A DNA stretch of 20,405 nt from an uncultured Thiotrichales bacterium (lineage in GTDB: Bacteria; Pseudomonadota; Gammaproteobacteria; HK1), in contig CAZQHJ010000026.1 of NCBI GenBank assembly GCA_964593225.1, positions 1 to 20,405 on the forward strand, read 5' to 3'. Both the position numbers and the translations under genes were made by a program. A model generated the notes under the pieces. That model saw only the letters and a list, made by a program, of their open reading frames with translations, was not told the DNA's origin and did not search any database. Below, one piece after another: positions 395 through 17,279 of this stretch (its first letter is position 1; each line of letters starts with the position of its first letter).

Positions 395-715
395 AAATTC
401 TCCGACCAATTGCCACTTGGGATCGTCGTTTTTCTGGTTGTATAGGGAAAACGGCTGGCACGGGGCGCATCCGGCGAGGACCCTGAGCGTATTCGGATAA
501 AACTCCCGCGTCACTTCCCGGCTGGAAATGGTGGCCACGTCCCACCGTATGAAAGGCGCGTCATTGTTGGTTTCGAACGGGTGACGGCACGCCTCGTCCA
601 CATCGATCCCGCATGCTACCGGGAAACCCTCGACCTTGAACCCATGGGTCAAGCCCCCGACGCCGCAAAACAGATCGATGACGGATGCCTGCATTCTCCC
701 AGTCCTGTTGTTCAA
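377..715 (-). pseudogene. DNA cytosine-5 methyltransferase (Dcm-like) N-terminal remnant, truncated after motif IV at the MITE-like element boundary
   Basis: 112-aa ORF carrying C5-MTase motif I (DLFCGVGG, F-x-G-x-G-G AdoMet site) and motif IV (GCAPCQPFS, catalytic PCQ). The reading frame ends in ...DPKWQLVGEF|GSGSV*, where GSGSV* is encoded by the terminal inverted repeat itself. Nothing C5-MTase-like (ENV motif, target-recognition domain) continues in any frame at 1-104. Confidence 0.6.
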
Positions 716-733
716 TCGGTTTTCGACTTCCGA

Positions 734-2248
734 CTAACCCCCACCGGTAGCCGGAGAAAAATCACCCAGCAGCATCTCCGCTGCCTGCCGGGCCACGCCC
801 GTGGTCAGCGACGCGTCCAGCCCGAAATAGAGGTTCGCCGCCACCAGGAACCAGATGGGGATCAACATGCCAAGGGGCGCCTCTTCCCGTTTATCCGCGA
901 CGGCGCCCGCGGCCCCGGCGGCCGCCGGTTGAAAATACGCCGCCTCCACCACCCGCCACACGTAGACCACCGCCAGCAGGGAGCCGACGATGATGACGGC
1001 CACCACCGGCCACAATCCCTGTTCCAGGGCGGCGGAGATGAGATACCACTTGCTGATGAAACCGACGCTCATGGGCACGCCGATGAGACTGAGCCCCCCC
1101 GCCACGAACGCGGCCATGGTCCAGGGCATCCGCCGGCCGAGGCCGGCAATCCCGTCCAGCGATACGCTGCCGAATCGGTAGAACACGCTGCCCAATGCCA
1201 TGAAAAGTGCCGTCTTGATGAGGGCGTGATTGAAGAGGTGGACGATGGTGGCCATAAGTCCCGTTATGGAGGTCAGGCTGATGCCAAGCACCATGTAACC
1301 GATCTGCGCCACGCTGGAATAGGCCAACATGCGTTTCAGGTTGGTTTGGAAGATGGCCACCAGGGCGCCGGAGAGCACCGCCACCACCGCCAGGACCAGC
1401 AATATCCCATCCAGGGCCAGAGTCTTGAAAGGAAAGCTGCCGCCGAACACGGTGAACAGGAAGCGCAGCAGGACATACACCCCGACCTTGGTGGCCGTGC
1501 CCGCCAACAGGGCCGACACGGCCGATGGCGCATAGGTGTAGGCATTGGGCAGCCAGGCGTGCAGGGGAAACAACGCCACCTTGAGACCGATACCCACGGT
1601 CAGGAAGGCGAACGCCACCGCCACCGTCCGGGTATTGGAGACCGCGGGCAGGCGCGCGGCCAGATCCATCATATTGAGCGTGCCGGTCATGGCGTACAAA
1701 AAGCCGATGCCGATCACGATGAAGGTGGCCCCGATGGTGCCCATCACCAGGTACCGATAGGCAGCCATCAGGGCGCGCCGATGGGACCCGAGGGCGATGA
1801 GCGCGTAGGTGGAAAGGGAGGAGATCTCCAGGAAGACGAACAGGTTGAAGACATCGCCGGTGATCGCGATGCCCAGGAGCCCCGTCAGGCACAGCACCCA
1901 GGCGGTGTAAAAGAGATAGATGCGATCGGGTTCGATCTCCCGCTCCACGCTTTTTCCGGCGAACACCACCACCACCGAGCTGATCCCCGCCACGATGAGC
2001 AGAAGAAAGGCATTGATGGTATCGACCCGGTATTCGATGCCCCAGGGCGCCGCCCAACCACCGAGGGCGTAGGAAAGGGGGCCCGTCTCGCGCACCGTGT
2101 GGAGCAATACCAGGGCGATGACAAACGCGGTCCAGCTCGCGGCGGTGGCAACCAGCCACGCGAGCTTGGGACGATGGACAAGGAGGCAGACGGGGGCCGC
2201 AATCAACGGGATGACGACCTGGAGCGCGGGGAGATGTTGTTCAATCAT
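734..2248 (-). CDS. mrpD: Proton-pumping antiporter-like membrane subunit, MrpD/MnhD (NuoN/NuoM/ND2 family), 504 aa
   Basis: Polytopic membrane protein whose composition and helix pattern are typical of the complex I antiporter-like family. Start ATG overlaps the stop of the upstream mrpC-like gene (ATGA), indicating translational coupling. The name MrpD versus NuoN rests on the adjacent MrpC-like gene. Confidence 0.8.
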   Translation of the reverse strand: MIEQHLPALQVVIPLIAAPVCLLVHRPKLAWLVATAASWTAFVIALVLLHTVRETGPLSYALGGWAAPWGIEYRVDTINAFLLLIVAGISSVVVVFAGKSVEREIEPDRIYLFYTAWVLCLTGLLGIAITGDVFNLFVFLEISSLSTYALIALGSHRRALMAAYRYLVMGTIGATFIVIGIGFLYAMTGTLNMMDLAARLPAVSNTRTVAVAFAFLTVGIGLKVALFPLHAWLPNAYTYAPSAVSALLAGTATKVGVYVLLRFLFTVFGGSFPFKTLALDGILLVLAVVAVLSGALVAIFQTNLKRMLAYSSVAQIGYMVLGISLTSITGLMATIVHLFNHALIKTALFMALGSVFYRFGSVSLDGIAGLGRRMPWTMAAFVAGGLSLIGVPMSVGFISKWYLISAALEQGLWPVVAVIIVGSLLAVVYVWRVVEAAYFQPAAAGAAGAVADKREEAPLGMLIPIWFLVAANLYFGLDASLTTGVARQAAEMLLGDFSPATGGG

Positions 2249-2634
2249 GATGGTTTCGAGTCGGGTTCTCGGGCTTCGAGCCTTTCTATCTTGTCTTCCT
2301 CCACCGACCCGTAGGCCGCTCGGATGCGGATCACCAGGGCAAGTCCCAAGGCCGTGGTCGCGACGCTGACCACGATGGCCGTGAGGATCAAAACGTGGGG
2401 CAAGGGGTTGGCGTAGTGGGGAATCCCTTCGGCAAGAATGGGCGCGGTGCCCCCTTCCAGCTTGGCCATGGAGATGTAGAAAATGAAGACGGATGTCTGG
2501 AAAACATTAAGACCAATGATCTTTTTCACAAGATGATGGCTTGCGATGGTCGCGTACAAACCGAGCATCATGAGCACGATCACGACCCAGTAGTTGAATA
2601 GACCGTTGAATAGGTCGAATGCGGTGGTAAGCAA
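2245..2634 (-). CDS. mrpC: Cation:proton antiporter subunit C (MrpC/MnhC, NuoK-like), 129 aa
   Basis: Three-TM small protein with the conserved GGTAPIL...DPLPQ/HVLILTAIV core recalled from MrpC/MnhC (NuoK paralogue). Coupled to the downstream MrpD-like gene. Confidence 0.75.
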   Translation of the reverse strand: MLTTAFDLFNGLFNYWVVIVLMMLGLYATIASHHLVKKIIGLNVFQTSVFIFYISMAKLEGGTAPILAEGIPHYANPLPHVLILTAIVVSVATTALGLALVIRIRAAYGSVEEDKIERLEAREPDSKPS

Positions 2635-5415: not shown

Positions 5416-5835
5416 AAGTGCCTTATGCAAAGGCATTGCCGACTTTCACGCTCTGAATTACGGAAGGATACATTGCTATATCGTACCGACCTGGAGGAGG
5501 CCTATGGCGAAAAACCGAGCCTGGGCACCCATGGGGGGGCGGTGTTTGGGTTTGAGCGCCTGGTGTGGGCATGATTCCGCTGACTGAAATCACGTGGTCC
5601 CCCTTTGCCGGACGAAGCATGTTCGGAAGACACTCAGGTCGTGGTCGAGTTTCAATACGCTCTCGAACTTCGACCGCTTCTCACAACCAATAAGGACAAC
5701 CTCTTCTTAAATATATCCTAAAGATCTTTCCCTTCGGTGGGGATGACAGTTGTATTTCACTGTGAAATTAAGATGGAACGAGCCACTACGGCATTTCGGC
5801 AATCTCCTCGAAACCTGCCTCGCTTTTCGAAGCGC

Positions 5836-6230
5836 CCGGAAAACTTTCCAAGTGCCCCGGCATACTTTCCGTGGATCTCGGATGGTTTTCCCCGATCCCG
5901 GGAAAGCCTTCCCGAGTCACGGGCAACCTTTCCCGGACCCCTGGCAAGCTTTCCCGCCGTCCCGGAAAGCCTTCCCGGATCGCCGGAAAGTTTCCCCGGG
6001 ATCCGGTAAATCTTACGCAAGGTTCCGGCGGGTCTGCCGAGTATCCGGTTCGCTTTCCCCATGATCCCGGCAGACCCGCCGAAGGTCGAATCCGGCTTTC
6101 CCGAGTTCCCGGCAATTTTCCGAGGTTCCGGTCAATCCCGCCCGGTATCCCGGAAAAGCTTCCGGCCTACCGGTGAAAGCCCTCCGGCATCGGGCCAATC
6201 CCACCGAGGGTTCGGGAACGTTTTCCTCGT
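5836..6230. repeat. Array of ~18-20 degenerate tandem repeats of 20-22 bp, with 10-11-bp sub-period; consensus approx. TTTCCCGG-N3-5-CCGGAAAGC
   Basis: TTCC(C)GG / CCGGAA motifs recur at 5846, 5866, 5887, 5909, 5929, 5950, 5972, 5990, 6023, 6054..., spaced 20-22 bp apart, with half-sites about every 10.5 bp. All six reading frames stay open across it, so it is a stop-free repeat rather than a gene. Lies immediately upstream of the flotillin start at 6270. Confidence 0.6.
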
Positions 6231-6269
6231 CCTTGCCCCGCAGGGCCGAGATGGCCGAACAACTGGGAG

Positions 6270-7814
6270 ATGGAACAGATGTGGAGTGAAATAATTTCTT
6301 ACCTGATTTTCGCGCTGGCGATCGTGTTGGTGTCGTTCGTGGTGTTTATCATCAAGAACTATCGGGTTATCGGGGCCAATGAGGTCGGCATTATCTCCGG
6401 CATTTTCCGAAGACAACGAATCCCCGAGACCGGGAAGATTAGGAACTATACCCTCCTGACGGGTGGCGGCGTGCTTGTCTGGCCCGTGATCAACCAATTG
6501 AATATCCTGAGCCTGGCGCTGCGAGAGATAAAGATAGATTTGGATGTTAGAACCAAGGAATACCTCCCGCTGAAGTTGACTGTCGTATTGGTATTTCACA
6601 TCGATGGCCATGGCGATCGATTGCATGTTGCCGTGAGCCTTTTTACACAAAGAACCGACCCGGACGACCAATTCGTCGAGGATTTACTGATGGGCAGTCT
6701 TCGAGACGTCATCGCGGGCATGTCCTACCATGAGCTACACAGGGAACGGGGTCGCCTCGAGGAGGAAACCCAGGGGTTCGTTCAAGGGAGATTCGACGAG
6801 TTGGGGCTGAAGGTCACCAGCCTCGTTATCCAAAATTTGACGCCAAAGGAGATTCCCCAAGACAAAGACGATTTTTGGGCCGTCAAGGCAAGAGAGGCCA
6901 TGGCGGAGATCATGCGGGAGACGGACAGTAATATTGCGCAGCAGGATAGCCTGAAAGAATCGGCGCTTGCGAAGGCTGACGCGGAAAAAGCAATCAATGT
7001 TTTCAACTCACGGAGAGATGAGTTTATCGCCGCGGCAGAGACCAGGAAAGAACAAGAGATCTCCCAACGCAATCTCGACCGGGATGTTTTCATTAATGGA
7101 CAAAAAGCGCAGGAATCGGAGGAGTCTCAAAAGAAGGAAACGGAAAGAAACATCGGGATAGTAGAGCAAGAGACGCGGAAAGCGATGGAAATTGCCAAGC
7201 GTGAAGCAGCGCGAGATATCAGAATCAAGGATGAGGAGGCGTTGCGGGACGAAGTTTGCAAAGAACAAGAACGCATCGAGGAAACCAAACTCAAAAAAGA
7301 GTCGACGCGAGCCGAGTCCGAAGTTGCCAAGGTTCGGGCAGACAAGCAAATCAAGTTGGAGACGGAAGACGCAAGAAAGCTGGAAAGCCTCCGGGAAAAC
7401 GAGATCACACGGGAAATCGATACCAACAGGGCGGCGATCCAGCAGGATATCGGCGTGGCGCGAAGGGATGCCGAACGCCAAATCAAGGTGGCGAGCATCA
7501 ATGCCGCGCGGGACGAGCGGCTACGCGAGCAGGAGACGGAAAGGGAGATCGTGGAGAACAAGAAGGAACTCTTGAAAACCCGAGACGAGATGAAGGCCAT
7601 CGAATTCGATACCAATGTCAGATCCCACCGGGCCGAGCTCGTGCCGCCCGTACTGGCGGAGAAGGAACAACAGGAAACCCAGGCGAACATCAAAAAGGCC
7701 GTGTTGGTCATCGAATCGTTGGCGCGCCTCTCCGCCGCCGAAAACGATCGCAACGCCAAGGCCTTCGAGGCCGAAGGCAACCTCCGTCTGGTCCAGGCGG
7801 AAGCGGAGGGGTAA
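6270..7814 (+). CDS. Flotillin (FloT/YuaG-like SPFH/band-7 protein): N-terminal TM anchor, SPFH domain, long E/A/K-rich coiled coil. Terminated by an in-frame TAA at 7812-7814
   Basis: Architecture and local motifs match bacterial flotillin: TM, then KNYRVIGANEVGIISG, TGGGVLVWPV, LRDVIAGMSYHELHRER, then long EA-rich heptads. RBS GGGAGA precedes the ATG. The conserved flotillin C-terminus continues in the same frame after the TAA. Confidence 0.8.
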   Translation: MEQMWSEIISYLIFALAIVLVSFVVFIIKNYRVIGANEVGIISGIFRRQRIPETGKIRNYTLLTGGGVLVWPVINQLNILSLALREIKIDLDVRTKEYLPLKLTVVLVFHIDGHGDRLHVAVSLFTQRTDPDDQFVEDLLMGSLRDVIAGMSYHELHRERGRLEEETQGFVQGRFDELGLKVTSLVIQNLTPKEIPQDKDDFWAVKAREAMAEIMRETDSNIAQQDSLKESALAKADAEKAINVFNSRRDEFIAAAETRKEQEISQRNLDRDVFINGQKAQESEESQKKETERNIGIVEQETRKAMEIAKREAARDIRIKDEEALRDEVCKEQERIEETKLKKESTRAESEVAKVRADKQIKLETEDARKLESLRENEITREIDTNRAAIQQDIGVARRDAERQIKVASINAARDERLREQETEREIVENKKELLKTRDEMKAIEFDTNVRSHRAELVPPVLAEKEQQETQANIKKAVLVIESLARLSAAENDRNAKAFEAEGNLRLVQAEAEG

Positions 7815-8276
7815 AAGGCAAAACTCATTGCCGACGCCGATGGCCTCAAGGCGCAACTCTTTGCCCAGGTCGATAGCCGAACGGCCCTGGCCGATGCCTT
7901 GAAGGAGGTGGATGACGCGACCAAGTTTTTCCTCTTCTTCAATGAGACCCTGGAACAGTTCCCCGAGATCCTCCGCGCCCTGGTGGGCGAACCCGGGCTG
8001 GCGGGCGTATTCGGGGAGATCGCAAAACCTCTCGGACAAATCGACAGCATCCGAATCGTCGATTTTGCCGGACAGAATGGCGCCGCTTCCCGCCTCTCCG
8101 AACTGGCGGAGGTCAGCCCTCGGATCGTCTTGAACTTCCTCTCCAAATTCCAGGCGGCCGGTTTCGGCGATATCATCAAAAAGCTTGGGATCTCCAACGA
8201 ATGGCTCGAAGAATTTGTGGAAAAAAAGGTCGGCGCGCCGGGCGATACGTCGAACGGCCCGACAACGGATCGATAG
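7815..8276 (+). CDS. C-terminal portion of the same flotillin, in frame downstream of the TAA (track ORF 7899-8276 is its internal-Met version)
   Basis: Same frame as 6270-7814. Sequence KAKLIADADGLKAQLFAQ...LPE...PLGQIDSIRIVDFAGQNGA matches my recollection of the flotillin C-terminal block (…AAIFDMIVKMLPE…PLSNIDKITVVDTGG…). Confidence 0.6.
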   Translation, partial: KAKLIADADGLKAQLFAQVDSRTALADALKEVDDATKFFLFFNETLEQFPEILRALVGEPGLAGVFGEIAKPLGQIDSIRIVDFAGQNGAASRLSELAEVSPRIVLNFLSKFQAAGFGDIIKKLGISNEWLEEFVEKKVGAPGDTSNGPTTDR

Positions 8277-8285
8277 CGCATCGTC

Positions 8286-9542
8286 ATGAATCGGACAACA
8301 CACGCCAATGCCCCGCCGGGCGAGAGAATCGACTCCCTGATGCGGTTCCTGTGGTGGTGCTCCGGGGCCGTCGTCTCCATGCTGAAAGACTACCCAACCG
8401 AATACAGCAAATATTTCGGGATAGGCGGCGCCATCTTCACCACCTGGTTGCTGGCGACCATCAGCGGCATCTATGCCTTCTACACCATGATTGGGAGTTA
8501 CTTTGTCGCGATTCCCATTGGCATCGTCTGGGGCTGGGTCATCTTCAATCTGGACCGGTTCATCACCTCCAGCATGAAAAAACCGGGCAACGAGATCGAC
8601 GAGGCCTTTTTCTCCGAACGCATCGGGGCCTTTCTCTCGGAATTCCTGCCGGCGATTCCCCGTATTCTGATTGCCGTGATCATCGGTTATTCCATCTCCA
8701 TTCCCCTGGAACTGCGGTTGTTCGAGTCCGAGGTGCTGGAACAGGTAAAAGAGATCGAAAAGATCGAGATGCAGCGGTACGTGGAGCGACTGCGCCAGGA
8801 ACGGGACAAGGTCATCTCTTCCCTCAAGTCCGAACGCGTAGCATTGAAACAGGAAGAAGACGAACTGCGCGAGGAATACGGACGCGGTCGGGAAGAAATC
8901 GCGCGCATGGAAGAACGCATCAAGGGACTTCGGCGGGAGTTGCAGGCCGATCTTGAAGAACACGCCTCGAAGATCACGGCGTTCCAGGCGGAAATAACCG
9001 GAACTGGCGGAACCGGACTGCCGGGCTATGGCAAAGTGGCGGGCCTCAAGGAGGATTTGATGAAAAAAACCGGCGATTGGTATCAGTCGAGCCAGGATCA
9101 AACCATGAAAAGGATCGAATCCATGGGTCAGCGGATTCTGGAGATCAACGGACGCCATAACCAATCCGCGCTCCGGCTCGATAGGCAGCTAACAGGTATC
9201 GAAACCGAGATCGAAAAAGCCAAGGAAGCGTTCGAGAAAGAGAAAGACAGGGTCCACGAAGAAGGCATGCGCCACGGGTTCCTGACCCAGGTCAAGGCGC
9301 TCTATCGGGTCTCGGCCCAGGAAGGCAACGAGGCCATCGAATGGGCGCACACCATCTTCGTGCTCCTGATCATTCTGGTGGAACTGGGTCCGATCATCGT
9401 CAAGCTGCTCTCGCCACGCGGACCTTACGATGCGCGGGTCGACCGTGAAAACAAGTTGGCGATGATCGGCATGGATAATGATGTGATTAAAGAACGTTCG
9501 ATAGCCATTCGAAATAGAAGAACCGGGAAGCACTTGACGTGA
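8286..9542 (+). CDS. DUF4407-like membrane protein: N-terminal multi-TM region, ~200-aa coiled coil, C-terminal TM helix
   Basis: N-terminal RFLWWCSGAV...YFGIGGAIFTT...NLDRFITSSMKK matches my recollection of the conserved DUF4407 (PF14362) N-terminus; this is unverified. ELRLFESEVLEQ...coiled coil. IFVLLIILVELGPIIVKLL C-terminal TM. Sits 10 bp after the flotillin stop. Confidence 0.6.
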   Translation: MNRTTHANAPPGERIDSLMRFLWWCSGAVVSMLKDYPTEYSKYFGIGGAIFTTWLLATISGIYAFYTMIGSYFVAIPIGIVWGWVIFNLDRFITSSMKKPGNEIDEAFFSERIGAFLSEFLPAIPRILIAVIIGYSISIPLELRLFESEVLEQVKEIEKIEMQRYVERLRQERDKVISSLKSERVALKQEEDELREEYGRGREEIARMEERIKGLRRELQADLEEHASKITAFQAEITGTGGTGLPGYGKVAGLKEDLMKKTGDWYQSSQDQTMKRIESMGQRILEINGRHNQSALRLDRQLTGIETEIEKAKEAFEKEKDRVHEEGMRHGFLTQVKALYRVSAQEGNEAIEWAHTIFVLLIILVELGPIIVKLLSPRGPYDARVDRENKLAMIGMDNDVIKERSIAIRNRRTGKHLT

Positions 9543-9567
9543 ATTCCGGCTAAATAGAGGAAATCGT

Positions 9568-11424
9568 GTGACACAAAAACAGAATCCTATCCCGGAGCGA
9601 GAGAAATCTTCCGGTCATCCTTCCGAGGTTCACCAACTAAAGGAAAAGTTGGAACAGGAGGTCTCCAATCTGAAAGAGGCAAATAATAGGGTATCGAAAA
9701 AACTGACGGTTTTCCCAACATTCACGATGTTGCTTTTGGTGACGATATTTCTTCTATTTATTTCCTCTGTCGTCGTGAATGACATACGTATGGCCAGGCA
9801 GATAGAAAACCGGATAGAGCTATCCAAAGGCGAGATAGAATCCTCGCTAACGGATGCCATCACGCATGATATGCTGGGTGAAATAGCGAAAATACAAGAT
9901 ATATCCGATGGCGCCGCACTGATCGAAAGATTATATAAAATCGCTGAAGAAACCAATCAACAGCTGAAAGATAAAATCAGCCGAATAGAATTTCAGCAGA
10001 ATATGATTGTCGATGGCGCGCAAGGGGCCCTGGAGAATATGTATTTTATATTCACCGCGGTGGCGGCCTTGTTTTCCCTCCTCGGCATTTACTTTGCCTA
10101 TCGGCATATTCACTTGGAATCGAAAAAGGAGGAATCACAGGAAAGGCACGACCAGGAAATGAGAGGCCTGGTGGGATCATTCCAGAACAACATCAATACA
10201 ATCAATTCTCTGGTGGCCACATTGGAGAAAAGCTACGCATATAGACAAATTGTAGAAGAGCAAATAGAAGAACTAAAAGAAGATGCCTCTTTATTCGAGA
10301 AGCGTCACAAGGAAGATGAAGAAAAGTTTCGTCAATCCATTGCTGAGCTCAACGCTAATGCGGTAAGGCTCTACAAAGCAAATATCTCCAGAACCACGTT
10401 GAATCAGGAGGAACGAAGGCGAGAGTTGAATGCTTTCGCTAACCGGATGAGCAATATGGAATCCAGTCGCGACATAGCAAGCGATATAAATCCCTTCTGT
10501 TATTATATGCGCGGATTGAGCCATGTCGCCAACTATAGATTCATGGATGGAATTAGGGATCTGGAAACTGCCTATAAAAAAGGCACGGACGATTTGTCAG
10601 GAATAAAAGAAGAAAACTATGCAGGGGAGCACATAATCCGTATACGCGAAGATCTAAATAAGATGCTCGTTGACGCGTGTTACTTTCAGGCCAATTCCTA
10701 TAAGAATCTGGGAAAATATAAAGAGAGTATTGCCAAGTTCTCCGAGGCCATTCGGCTCGATCCCAAACACCTGGACTCACTTGTTACCAGAGTACAGGTG
10801 ATGTTCTTCGATAAAGATGTCCCATTTGGAGCGGTTGAAGAAGAGTGTGAAAAACTGGATCGGGCATTCAATTCGTTCAGTGATGCGGACGTTGACGAGG
10901 CTGCCTTGAAAGAGGCGAAAAAATTCCTGAAACTTTACCAGGGAAATATGTATTTAAGTAAGGAGAAGCGACTCTTGCCGAAATTCCGTGCCGCATATGA
11001 GAAGTATGAGGATAAGGCGAAGGCACTGGAATTCTACGGGCAGGCATATGATGATTCTCCATCGGCTCGCCCTGCCTTTGCCGTTGCGCAGGCTATGGAG
11101 GGCGTTGGGCCATCCTCCTGGAGAAGGGGAGAAACACCGGAGAAGATGTATGAACGAGCAATAACAAAACTAAAGGATAGGGTAACACACGACCACGACC
11201 TCATATATTCCGTCATGTTGTACTATATGTTGGCCATTTGCGCGTGCAATCTACCGAGGAGAAAAGAAAGCGCGGAAATGTACTTATCACAAGCGCGACA
11301 GTGTTTAAAAGAGTTGCCTGGCGATATCACTTACTTCTCGCCCATGAACAAAATCAGATTGAAGCGGGCGGAAATATTGGAAGAAATGAACGAATTCGAG
11401 CGATCTTTTATAAAAAATAGTTGA
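9568..11424 (+). CDS. Hypothetical 618-aa membrane protein: two TM helices bracketing a ~90-aa loop, then coiled coil and TPR-like C-terminal repeats; markedly AT-rich gene
   Basis: GTG start with RBS AGAGGAAA. TM1 VFPTFTMLLLVTIFLLFISSVVV and TM2 MYFIFTAVAALFSLLGIYFAY. TPR-like ANSYKNLGKYKESIAKFSEAIRLDPKHLDS. GC is visibly lower than the flanks. 26 bp downstream of the DUF4407-like gene. Confidence 0.65.
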   Translation: MTQKQNPIPEREKSSGHPSEVHQLKEKLEQEVSNLKEANNRVSKKLTVFPTFTMLLLVTIFLLFISSVVVNDIRMARQIENRIELSKGEIESSLTDAITHDMLGEIAKIQDISDGAALIERLYKIAEETNQQLKDKISRIEFQQNMIVDGAQGALENMYFIFTAVAALFSLLGIYFAYRHIHLESKKEESQERHDQEMRGLVGSFQNNINTINSLVATLEKSYAYRQIVEEQIEELKEDASLFEKRHKEDEEKFRQSIAELNANAVRLYKANISRTTLNQEERRRELNAFANRMSNMESSRDIASDINPFCYYMRGLSHVANYRFMDGIRDLETAYKKGTDDLSGIKEENYAGEHIIRIREDLNKMLVDACYFQANSYKNLGKYKESIAKFSEAIRLDPKHLDSLVTRVQVMFFDKDVPFGAVEEECEKLDRAFNSFSDADVDEAALKEAKKFLKLYQGNMYLSKEKRLLPKFRAAYEKYEDKAKALEFYGQAYDDSPSARPAFAVAQAMEGVGPSSWRRGETPEKMYERAITKLKDRVTHDHDLIYSVMLYYMLAICACNLPRRKESAEMYLSQARQCLKELPGDITYFSPMNKIRLKRAEILEEMNEFERSFIKNS

Positions 11425-14124: not shown

Positions 14125-16116
14125 ATGTCTGATGGTATTTTTGGTAATCCCCAGGTTATCGAGGAAGAGGTCGATATCCTATTGATTGGTGGTGGTATGG
14201 CCTGTTGTGGTGCCGCCTTTGAAATCATGCGGTGGCTCGAAGCCGAGGGCAGTGGCCTCAAGGTAAAGTTGGTCGACAAGGCCGCCATGGATCGCTCCGG
14301 CGCCGTGGCCCAGGGACTGTCCGCCATCAACACCTATATCGGTACAGAGCAGGATCCCGCCGACTATGCCCGCATGGTCTCCAACGACCTCATGGGCATC
14401 ACCCGCGACGATTTGGCCTATGATCTCGGTCGCCATGTGGACGAATCCGTGCATCTGTTCGAAGAATGGGGCCTGCCCATTTGGAAGACCGACGAAAACG
14501 GCGAGCGTCACGATGGCTCCAAGGGTCTGCCCGCGCTGAAAGACGGCGGCAAACCCGTGCGTTCCGGTAAGTGGCAAATCATGATCAACGGTGAATCCTA
14601 CAAGTGGATCGTCGCCGAAGCCGCCAAGAAGGCGCTGGGTGTGGACAACATCCAGGAGCGCGTCTTCATCGTCAAGCTGGTCAACGACAAAAACAAACCC
14701 AATCAGGTCTGTGGCGCGGTCGGTTTCTCCGTTCGCGAAAACAAGATCTATGTCTACAAGTTCAAGGCCTGCCTACTGGCCGCCGGTGGTTGCGTGAACA
14801 TCTTCCGTCCGCGTTCCGTGGGCGAAGGCACGGGCCGCGCTTGGTACCCCGTCTGGAATTCCGGTTCCACCTACTCCATGGCCGCCGAGGCCGGCGCCGA
14901 GCTGACCATGATGGAAAACCGCTTCGTGCCGACCCGCTTCAAGGACGGTTACGGTCCGGTAGGCGCTTGGTTCCTGCTCTTCAAGTCCGTTGCGACCAAC
15001 GCCTTGGGCGAGCAGTATATGCAACGCAACAAGGAGATGCTGGACGACTATCCGCCCTATGGCAAGGCCGCCGTCCCTGCTTCCTGCCTGCGTAACCACC
15101 TCATGCTCAAAGAGATGAAGGAAGGCCGCGGTCCCATCTACATGGATACCGTCACGGCGCTTGCCAATCTCCGCGAAACCCTGAGCCCCCGCGAGGTCAA
15201 GCACCTGGAAGCCGAGGCATGGGAAGACTTCCTGGATATGTGCGTCGGTCAGTGCGGTATCTGGGTCGGTGAAAACATTGAGCCCGAGAAGAAGAACTCC
15301 GAACTCATGCCCACCGAGCCCTACCTGCTGGGTTCCCATTCCGGTTGTTGCGGCATCTGGGTCTCCGGTCCCACCGATGTCGGTGCGCCCACGGCGGAAA
15401 AAGAAAGCGGCATTCCCTCCCATCTGCCCTCCGGCTGGAACTGGGGTTACCGCTCCATGACCACCGTCAATGGTCTCTTCACGGCTGGCGATGGCGTTGG
15501 CGCCTCCGGTCACAAGTTCTCCTCCGGCTCCCACGCCGAAGGTCGCCTGTGCGCCAAGTCCATGGTCAAGTACTGCGTGGACAATAAGGACTACAAACCC
15601 GAGATGGATACCCCGGTGCAGGAACTGGTGGATGCCATTTATCAGCCCGTCAAGACCTACCTGGAGTTCAAGGACTACACCACCGCCATCGACGTGAACC
15701 CCAACTACATCACGCCGAAGATGCTGCAATTCCGTCTGCAGAAGATCATGGACGAGTACGTTGCGGGTGTGGCCACCTACTACACCACCAACGAGCATAT
15801 GCTGGCGGTTGCCGAGGACAAGCTGGAGATGCTCAAGGAAGACGCGGCCAAGATGCGCGCCAAGGACCTGCACGAACTGCTGCGGGCCTGGGAGAACTAC
15901 CACCGCATCCTGACGGCTGAAGCCCACATGAAACACATCCAGTTCCGCCAGGAAAGCCGTTATCCCGGTTTCTACTATCGCGCGGACAAAAACTTCGTGG
16001 ACGAAAAGAATTGGAAGTGCTTCGTGAACTCCATCTACGACAAGAGTACCAAGAAGTGGACCTGCTTCAAGCGCGCCCACACGGATCTGGTCGACAAGTC
16101 GAAGCTGTTCAAGTAA
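14125..16116 (+). CDS. aprA: Adenylylsulfate (APS) reductase alpha subunit AprA (FAD flavoprotein), 663 aa
   Basis: FAD fingerprint DILLIGGGMACCGAAFE. Length and motifs match the AprA / fumarate-reductase flavoprotein family. Immediately downstream of aprB, with RBS GAGGA. Confidence 0.9.
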   Translation: MSDGIFGNPQVIEEEVDILLIGGGMACCGAAFEIMRWLEAEGSGLKVKLVDKAAMDRSGAVAQGLSAINTYIGTEQDPADYARMVSNDLMGITRDDLAYDLGRHVDESVHLFEEWGLPIWKTDENGERHDGSKGLPALKDGGKPVRSGKWQIMINGESYKWIVAEAAKKALGVDNIQERVFIVKLVNDKNKPNQVCGAVGFSVRENKIYVYKFKACLLAAGGCVNIFRPRSVGEGTGRAWYPVWNSGSTYSMAAEAGAELTMMENRFVPTRFKDGYGPVGAWFLLFKSVATNALGEQYMQRNKEMLDDYPPYGKAAVPASCLRNHLMLKEMKEGRGPIYMDTVTALANLRETLSPREVKHLEAEAWEDFLDMCVGQCGIWVGENIEPEKKNSELMPTEPYLLGSHSGCCGIWVSGPTDVGAPTAEKESGIPSHLPSGWNWGYRSMTTVNGLFTAGDGVGASGHKFSSGSHAEGRLCAKSMVKYCVDNKDYKPEMDTPVQELVDAIYQPVKTYLEFKDYTTAIDVNPNYITPKMLQFRLQKIMDEYVAGVATYYTTNEHMLAVAEDKLEMLKEDAAKMRAKDLHELLRAWENYHRILTAEAHMKHIQFRQESRYPGFYYRADKNFVDEKNWKCFVNSIYDKSTKKWTCFKRAHTDLVDKSKLFK

Positions 16117-16256: not shown

Positions 16257-17279
16257 ATGGTGTTATCGAGAAGTCAGCAGCTCACTGGAAAAAGTTGCAC
16301 ACCGAACTATAGGGATAAATTATCCGAACCGTCCGGATCGGATAATTTATCGATCACCACATCCCTGTCGCCAGGGATGGAACTCGCCGTTACCGTGGAT
16401 ACTCTGGTCTGCGGTGTCCACTTCCCACCCGATACCGCGCCTGTCGACATCGGCCATAAGGCGCTCGCCGTAAATATAAGTGATCTTGCCGCCATGGGTG
16501 CCCGTCCGGATTGGGCCGTCATGAGCCTCGTTGTTCCTCGGTGGGACGAAGATTGGATCTCGGCGTTTCACAGAGGATTCAACGAACTCGCTGAGCAGCA
16601 TGGTGTTCGACTCATGGCCTGGGACATTGGCGTTGGTCCGCTGGCAATGACCATCCAGATCCATGGGCAGGTGCCCTCTGGTCGCGCCCTTCGTCGTGAT
16701 TGTGCCCGTCCGGGGGACCTCATCTTTGTCACCGGAACCTTGGGTGATGCCGGTCTGGCCCTCGGAACACGATTTGCCGACGAAGGAGAGGGGTTCGAAA
16801 TCCCCGAGGAAGACAAGGCATTTATCGACAGGCGCCTGGCCTGTCCCACGCCTCGTGTCATTGAGGGAATCGCGCTCCGTGGGATCGCAACCGCAGCCAT
16901 CGACATCTCCGATGGGTTGACTGCGGATCTATCACACATCGTCGAGGCAAGTCGGGCCTGTGCGGAGGAGTTGGGAGGATTGAGCGCGACGATTGATATG
17001 GAAAAACTACCTTTATCGCTTGCATTGCAGCGGCTCCCGGACCGAATACAGGCATGGCAATTTGCGCTGTCATCCGGTGACGATTACGAACTGTGCTTTA
17101 CGGTACCGCCGGATCGATACCGGAGACTACAGCAGGTCGCGGAGCGTTTTCCCTGTCCCATCACCCATATCGGTTGCATGGAAACGGATTCGGAGGCCCG
17201 TCCGGCCATTCGGTTCCTGGGATCGGCATCGGGCGAGGAAGCGTTTTTGTCCAGGGCGGGATATCGGCATTTCGGGTAA
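16257..17279 (+). CDS. thiL: Thiamine-monophosphate kinase ThiL (AIR-synthase-related fold), with atypical N-terminus
   Basis: LAVTVDTLVCGVHF, KALAVNISDLAAMGA, GPLAMTIQIHGQVPSGRALRRDCARPGDLIFVTG, DISDGL, SSGDDYELCFTVPP all align with ThiL. The first ~40 residues lack the usual GEFxLI/IGDDxAL block and contain a 38-bp palindrome, so the true start is uncertain. Confidence 0.75.
   Translation: MVLSRSQQLTGKSCTPNYRDKLSEPSGSDNLSITTSLSPGMELAVTVDTLVCGVHFPPDTAPVDIGHKALAVNISDLAAMGARPDWAVMSLVVPRWDEDWISAFHRGFNELAEQHGVRLMAWDIGVGPLAMTIQIHGQVPSGRALRRDCARPGDLIFVTGTLGDAGLALGTRFADEGEGFEIPEEDKAFIDRRLACPTPRVIEGIALRGIATAAIDISDGLTADLSHIVEASRACAEELGGLSATIDMEKLPLSLALQRLPDRIQAWQFALSSGDDYELCFTVPPDRYRRLQQVAERFPCPITHIGCMETDSEARPAIRFLGSASGEEAFLSRAGYRHFG

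Follow-up and report, generated by a model that had tools for sequence, protein, structure and literature searches.

The window analysed here, the whole 20,405-nucleotide contig CAZQHJ010000026.1 (GenBank assembly GCA_964593225.1) of an uncultured Thiotrichales bacterium, carries a flotillin-like gene that is interrupted by an in-frame TAA, and this stop is very probably a real and recent CAA-to-TAA nonsense mutation truncating the gene in Candidatus Kentron sp. H. The event is of an ordinary kind, and is neither an assembly error nor a recoding signal. The truncated product of 511 amino acids is an exact match to a protein entry of Candidatus Kentron sp. H, which is the same organism as Candidatus Kentrum eta (P0001; GenBank VFJ94617.1, VFJ95167.1 and VFK01737.1, under the name 'YqiK'). 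Kentron has been described as the sulfur-oxidising ectosymbiont of the ciliate Kentrophoros (PMC6593406).

The plus-strand codons at the site read GCG GAG GGG TAA AAG GCA AAA CTC, with the TAA at 7812-7814 in frame with the open reading frame (ORF) that opens at ATG 6270 (listed as 6270..7814). Translation of 6270-8276 in this single frame gives 514 residues, one stop, another 153 residues and then TAG at 8274-8276, leaving an orphaned 3' segment of 462 nucleotides. Both statements of the first-pass annotation, that the TAA splits a flotillin gene and that a further 153 codons up to 8276 can be read in the same frame, are thus borne out, while its product lengths need a small revision. The start codon is likely to be ATG 6279 (MWSEII...) rather than ATG 6270, since GGGAGA lies 8 nucleotides upstream of it, the orthologue begins with MWGEII and gene callers choose the same position; the products would therefore be 511 residues (truncated) and 665 residues (restored) instead of 514 and about 667.

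The part upstream of the stop consists of a membrane anchor, visible in the translation as the N-terminal hydrophobic stretch IISYLIFALAIVLVSFVVFII, a Band_7/SPFH domain (Pfam PF01145, residues 33-197, E 2.1e-16, 60.9 bits against a cut-off of 23.6) and a long helical region rich in Glu, Lys and Ala. Flotillin similarity downstream of the stop, on which the earlier interpretation depended, is present in the Pfam Flot match, the FloT profile, the relatives found with HMMER and the PDB chains. The Pfam Flot domain (PF15975) is matched in the 153-residue part with E 1.5e-6 and 28.8 bits against a threshold of 27; this match lies wholly downstream of the TAA and begins at profile position 12, which places the stop close to the start of the domain. 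In the alignment to the NCBIfam FloT profile (NF058507), the upstream piece covers profile positions 6-253 with 80.1 bits and the downstream piece 369-448 with 18.9 bits, both far short of the equivalog cut-off of 700 bits. Judged by these profiles, the Kentron H protein is a divergent flotillin-like protein and no FloT orthologue.

Searched against the PDB, the family profile retrieves Flotillin-1 (9bq2_B and 9l3g_A, E about 3e-68) and Flotillin-2 (E about 5e-66), and in the pairwise alignment the stop falls close to Flot1 residue 287, before the C-terminal region. In the human flotillin-1/2 structure solved by cryo-electron microscopy, CC2 and the C-terminal domain form the roof of a 44-mer dome, and the authors report a possible disruption of dome formation when the C-terminus is progressively truncated (PMC13000311). 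The AlphaFold monomer model of the intact orthologue has a predicted local distance difference test score (pLDDT) of 62.6, with residues 530-615 below 50, and is too weak to serve for fold comparison; it predicts a helix at residues 2-29 and places Q515, the equivalent of the TAA, inside the last long helix (462-544), where model confidence is low.

Ribosomes would accordingly be expected to terminate at 7812-7814, presumably with good efficiency, and to release a protein that keeps its membrane anchor and SPFH domain along with most of the helical region. By homology to solved flotillins, the 153 lost residues correspond to the end of the wall helix together with the CC2 and C-terminal domains that close the cage roof, and the truncated product is likely to be functionally impaired. 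The 3' 462 nucleotides would then be an orphaned gene remnant that is too young to have decayed. The loss might be tolerated because the gene belongs to an accessory cassette of a symbiont with a small population, and in a host-associated bacterium drift could plausibly fix a loss-of-function allele in such a cassette.

Reality, origin and age of the stop codon

The stop is real and reproducible, and it is present in every sampled library. The exact 51-nucleotide context with the TAA is identical in all six retrieved loci (L001-L006), which come from the Logan assemblies of ERR2391701, -702, -703, -706 and -662, each assembled independently, and from the ENA assembly ERZ27275416. In the four loci that span the gene, the entire region 6270-8276 is identical to the window. 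Moreover, 17 contigs encode the 511-residue product and three GenBank protein accessions carry it. A search of 5.8 billion proteins found no intact Kentron H allele, the only close matches being the truncated entry itself, whose cluster has one member, and the orthologue P0002 at 58% identity. Sequencing or assembly error, which the first-pass annotation had listed as an option and which would mean a sense codon at 7812-7814 in the actual genome, is therefore not borne out. Such an artefact might be suspected because the source is a metagenome-assembled genome, fragmented and based on short Illumina reads (PMC6593406), but it is highly improbable here, given the recurrence of the same TAA across the loci, the contigs and the accessions; the contigs also pass through the site unbroken, which argues against a mixed position.

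The mutational origin can be read from the only close orthologue, P0002, an intact protein of 678 residues from another Kentron that has both the Band_7 and the Flot domain on a single chain. The alignment with the restored Kentron H protein extends over its whole length, while the part downstream of the stop shows 82% amino acid identity to its C-terminus, and 90% over the first 128 codons, so the downstream frame is not open by chance. At the stop position the orthologous codon (locus L007) is CAA (Gln) and the flanking codons are conserved; one C-to-T transition is thus enough to account for the TAA. The orthologue comparison that had been proposed earlier therefore gave a codon one change away from TAA, and this codon, together with the undecayed downstream part, supports a recent nonsense mutation, the first of the three options originally offered. 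Right after the codon matching the TAA, residues 516-536 of P0002 include an extra 11-residue copy of KAKLIA(D/K)AD(G/A), which places the mutation at the edge of a short repeat whose copy number differs between the two species.

An exhaustive HMMER search with the 153-residue segment retrieved 90 relatives. In the long ones (450-650 residues) the matching region is always C-terminal; the short matches (88-320 residues) could be contig-truncated fragments or stand-alone genes. In an alignment of 12 relatives, the column of the stop is occupied by polar residues (Q, N, E, T, R or K), and none of the proteins ends there, all of them running on for about 130-190 residues into a conserved C-terminal block. 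The close family is very small, as after P0002 there is one relative at 67% identity over the C-terminal domain and the rest have at most 43% over that domain. Two scans of GTDB genome contigs returned no Kentron orthologue and also missed the source contig itself, and a word-indexed protein search with the 153-residue segment returned only its own ORF and missed the 82%-identical P0002; the negatives of these searches for the Kentron clade should therefore be treated cautiously.

The age of the TAA was gauged against one orthologue (P0002) and one outgroup (P0007). Between the two Kentron genes, the ratio of non-synonymous to synonymous substitution rates (dN/dS) is 0.16 in the SPFH part, 0.20 in the helical region and 0.19 over the whole upstream part; it is 0.15 (0.149) in the 71 codons before the stop, 0.14 (0.136) in the 152 codons after it and 0.064 in the first 128 of these. 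Relative-rate tests gave 7 Kentron H-specific against 8 sister-specific changes downstream, and 40 against 43 upstream. Within the 153 codons after the stop there is no sign of relaxed constraint and no secondary lesion, neither a stop nor a frameshift. As a rough bound, the Kentron H branch has about 0.35 synonymous substitutions per site and the segment about 350 non-synonymous sites; neutral evolution over the whole branch would add dozens of changes, and on this rough estimate the orphaned segment may have evolved free of constraint over no more than about 5-10% of the branch. Read in this way, the comparison would mean that the mutation is either very recent or that the downstream segment is still under selection.

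Two points weigh against a recent loss of function. The downstream 153 codons, free of any second lesion, are the best-conserved part of the gene, and continued selection would give the same pattern. In addition, the sampled libraries may all derive from one local population; the Kentron genomes of the study to which the present runs may belong were binned from metagenomes of one host individual each (PMC6593406). A small residual doubt attaches to whether the intact downstream segment is still expressed.

Alternative explanations

Continued expression of the downstream segment could take the form of a functional split gene, in which a C-terminal polypeptide of about 122-125 residues, translated from its own start, would join the 511-residue N-terminal product non-covalently in a working cage. 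The downstream frame is indeed fully intact and strongly constrained, and gene callers predict an ORF of 122 or 125 residues there; the shorter form corresponds to GenBank entries (P0006, VFJ94614.1 and others, 'hypothetical protein BECKH772A_GA0070896_100744'; also P0096). However, the first in-frame start is TTG 7899, 28 codons past the stop, so that the conserved stretch KAKLIADADG...ALADA would be lost, and no well-spaced Shine-Dalgarno sequence is available, as AAGGAG (7902-7907) abuts GTG 7908 and nothing precedes TTG 7899. The AAGGAG-GTG codons themselves are K-E-V, which is conserved coding sequence in the intact orthologue. Since the domain is fused at the C-terminus in every long relative, and since recency explains the intact frame equally well, a split gene is unlikely, and the downstream ORF is probably no real independent gene. 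Programmed or functional readthrough of the UAA, by a near-cognate tRNA-Gln or an ochre suppressor, would instead yield some 665-residue protein beside the truncated form. Homology resumes in the same frame right after the stop, the downstream segment is undecayed and the ancestral residue is Gln, tRNA-Gln being a main near-cognate reader of UAA (PMC5289835). Yet among bacterial stop codons UAA, which RF1 and RF2 both recognise, is the least leaky (PMC5289835), its +4 base here is A (a UAA-A context), and the stop is not conserved, the orthologue having CAA and other relatives having sense codons. The RNA of 7790-7920 (131 nucleotides) folds no better than shuffled sequences (z +0.96), an Rfam scan of the window gave no match, a tRNA gene scan of the 20-kb window found none, and TAA is the normal terminator of aprA and thiL. 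Programmed readthrough, also among the options first offered, is thus unsupported and very unlikely. Taken across both routes, that is, Gln-type readthrough or separate translation of the 3' ORF with the TAA tolerated or maintained, it is quite unlikely that the cage-closing C-terminal module is still delivered. Should this nevertheless be the case, the flotillin would be naturally split or dose-tuned, and the proportion of roofless against complete subunits would determine the cage geometry.

In the nuclear code of the karyorelict host ciliate UAA stands for Gln, and the orthologous residue is Gln as well; a genetic-code variant with TAA as a sense codon is nevertheless scarcely credible. The contig is bacterial, with SurA, AprBA, ThiL, GlgC-like and NuoN-like genes, the symbiont has its own translation machinery, and Gln is simply the starting codon of a C-to-T change that creates TAA. 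TAA also ends aprA (14125-16116; FAD_binding_2, 663 residues) and thiL (16257-17279; AIRS, 340 residues) at the expected lengths, in agreement with the first-pass annotation, which had dismissed a code variant on the strength of these two genes. The host code was therefore rejected as an explanation. A bypass by +1 or -1 frameshifting was rejected as well, for homology stays in the zero frame and the +1 frame runs into a TGA some 30 codons on. A recent CAA-to-TAA nonsense mutation thus remains the preferred reading of the site.

The flotillin-DUF4407-TPR cassette and other features of the window

The disrupted gene is the first of a cassette in which flotillin-like, DUF4407 and tetratricopeptide repeat (TPR) genes follow one another in the same order in both Kentron species (Table 1).

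Table 1. Features of the flotillin-like gene and its cassette; positions are those of the window unless a locus is named.
Feature	Position	Strand	Description and basis
Truncated flotillin-like coding sequence	6279..7814	+	511 aa + premature TAA; ORF list, translation, Pfam, exact protein-entry match
Premature stop TAA	7812..7814	+	orthologous codon CAA (Gln), single C-to-T transition; codon alignment
Orphaned 3' part	7815..8276	+	153 sense codons + TAG; end of helical region + flotillin C-terminal domain
Downstream ORF as annotated	7908..8276	+	122 aa from GTG 7908, or 125 aa from TTG 7899; gene callers
Predicted downstream tryptic peptides			FFLFFNETLEQFPEILR, IVDFAGQNGAASR, LSELAEVSPR, LGISNEWLEEFVEK
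DUF4407 gene, intact	8286..9542	+	Pfam DUF4407, E 2e-63; begins 9 nt after the flotillin TAG
TPR-containing gene, intact	9568..11424	+	about 615-618 aa; Pfam TPR matches; orthologue in L007-L012
Cassette or module loci	window 6279-11424; L007-L012; L013 362-5035; L015 763-4055		

The 9-nucleotide junction between the flotillin-like and DUF4407 genes is the same in the orthologous cassette, and this conservation suggests translational coupling between the DUF4407 start and the flotillin stop; a possible consequence is that the premature stop may exert polarity on DUF4407. Pairwise dN/dS between the two Kentron species is 0.22 for the DUF4407 gene and 0.085 for the TPR gene. DNA homology between the two cassettes begins inside the flotillin gene and ceases where the TPR gene ends; the flanks are unrelated, and the cassette is thus non-syntenic. 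GC content is 0.44-0.49 over the TPR gene (window 9001-11000), as compared with about 0.55-0.63 elsewhere in the window, and this would fit a foreign origin for at least the TPR part of the cassette.

A DUF4407 gene directly follows the flotillin-like gene not only in both Kentron species but also next to two distant relatives, P0007 (L013) and P0016 (L015, GCA_026995525.1), the flotillin-DUF4407 module being present in four of the six loci examined. At L013 a 472-residue TIR-domain protein adjoins the flotillin gene upstream, and in Kentron the TPR protein comes after DUF4407. PADLOC had no model for the flotillin or the TPR protein and gave only weak coiled-coil noise for DUF4407; with no matching system, assignment of the cassette to a defence system is unsupported. 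A literature search on DUF4407 found nothing functional. Judging from gene order, flotillin-DUF4407 looks like an uncharacterised conserved two-gene membrane module that sometimes sits beside defence-type genes, and it is probably more interesting biologically than the stop codon.

In the other Kentron species, a cassette block of about 6.4 kb is 99.98-100% identical across L007 1098-7538, L008 1414-7853 and L009 21-6460, with three different downstream contexts, namely an MMPL transporter, DUF302 with cytochrome c, and ArsC with a phage-type integrase. Its left edge lies inside a perfect palindrome of about 78 nucleotides (L007 1060-1136). The cassette may be mobile or present in several copies, or else the assembly may have branched at a repeat.

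Directly upstream of the flotillin gene, in the gene-free gap 5416-6269, there is a degenerate tandem array with a 21-nucleotide period (5825-6230) and a unit of roughly TTTCCCnGAnCCCGGnAAAGC. Tandem Repeats Finder reports three blocks, at 5825-5870, 5887-5998 and 6097-6136, and by eye the motif extends to about 6210, with about 18 units. The cassette of the other Kentron is also preceded by a periodic array, of 21/42 nucleotides (L007 1272-1434), with a different motif (TTCGAA palindromes), so the arrays of the two species share their period and differ in sequence. The 21-nucleotide array has no Rfam match, and it may be a phased protein-binding array. Elsewhere in the window, two long ORFs overlap on opposite strands, at 581-2314 (+) and 734-2248 (-). 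Only the minus-strand ORF has a domain (Proton_antipo_M, NuoN/Mrp-like, E 1e-62), and the 577-residue plus-strand ORF is probably a shadow ORF in GC-rich sequence.

Comparison with known systems

The two coding sequences held in GenBank as the 511-residue 'YqiK' and the 122-residue 'hypothetical protein' are one broken gene, and they should be flagged as disrupted. The locus provides a clean example of a very young truncation that is found in every sampled library of a vertically associated symbiont and that affects an accessory cassette. Provided that the truncated form is still produced, it would amount to a naturally roofless flotillin, possibly useful for studying cage assembly. The portions consulted of the supplements to the Kentron genome paper mention neither this gene nor pseudogenes.

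The protein shares with animal flotillin-1/2 and with the bacterial FloT/YqiK-type members of the SPFH/Band 7 superfamily an anchor, an SPFH domain, a helical region rich in Glu, Ala and Lys, and a C-terminal 'Flot' domain. Canonical flotillins have about 430-510 residues, whereas the Kentron proteins have 665-678, the difference coming from an expanded helical region; in Kentron H, unlike in flotillins, a stop codon removes the C-terminal quarter. With programmed readthrough and recoding (UGA readthrough, selenocysteine and pyrrolysine), the locus has in common an in-frame stop beyond which homologous coding sequence continues without a change of frame. It differs from these known cases in that the codon is UAA instead of UGA or UAG, the stop is unconserved, and neither a downstream structure nor a known element accompanies it.

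There is also a likeness to the young pseudogenes or split genes that single nonsense mutations create in host-restricted bacteria, in which, as here, one point lesion lies in an accessory gene, the remaining frame is intact and the lesion is present in all libraries. Kentron genomes, in contrast to those of host-restricted bacteria with young pseudogenes, are not strongly reduced, at 3.3-5.0 Mbp (PMC6593406). A single lesion, an intact frame, presence in all libraries and an accessory gene together make up the classic signature of early gene loss.

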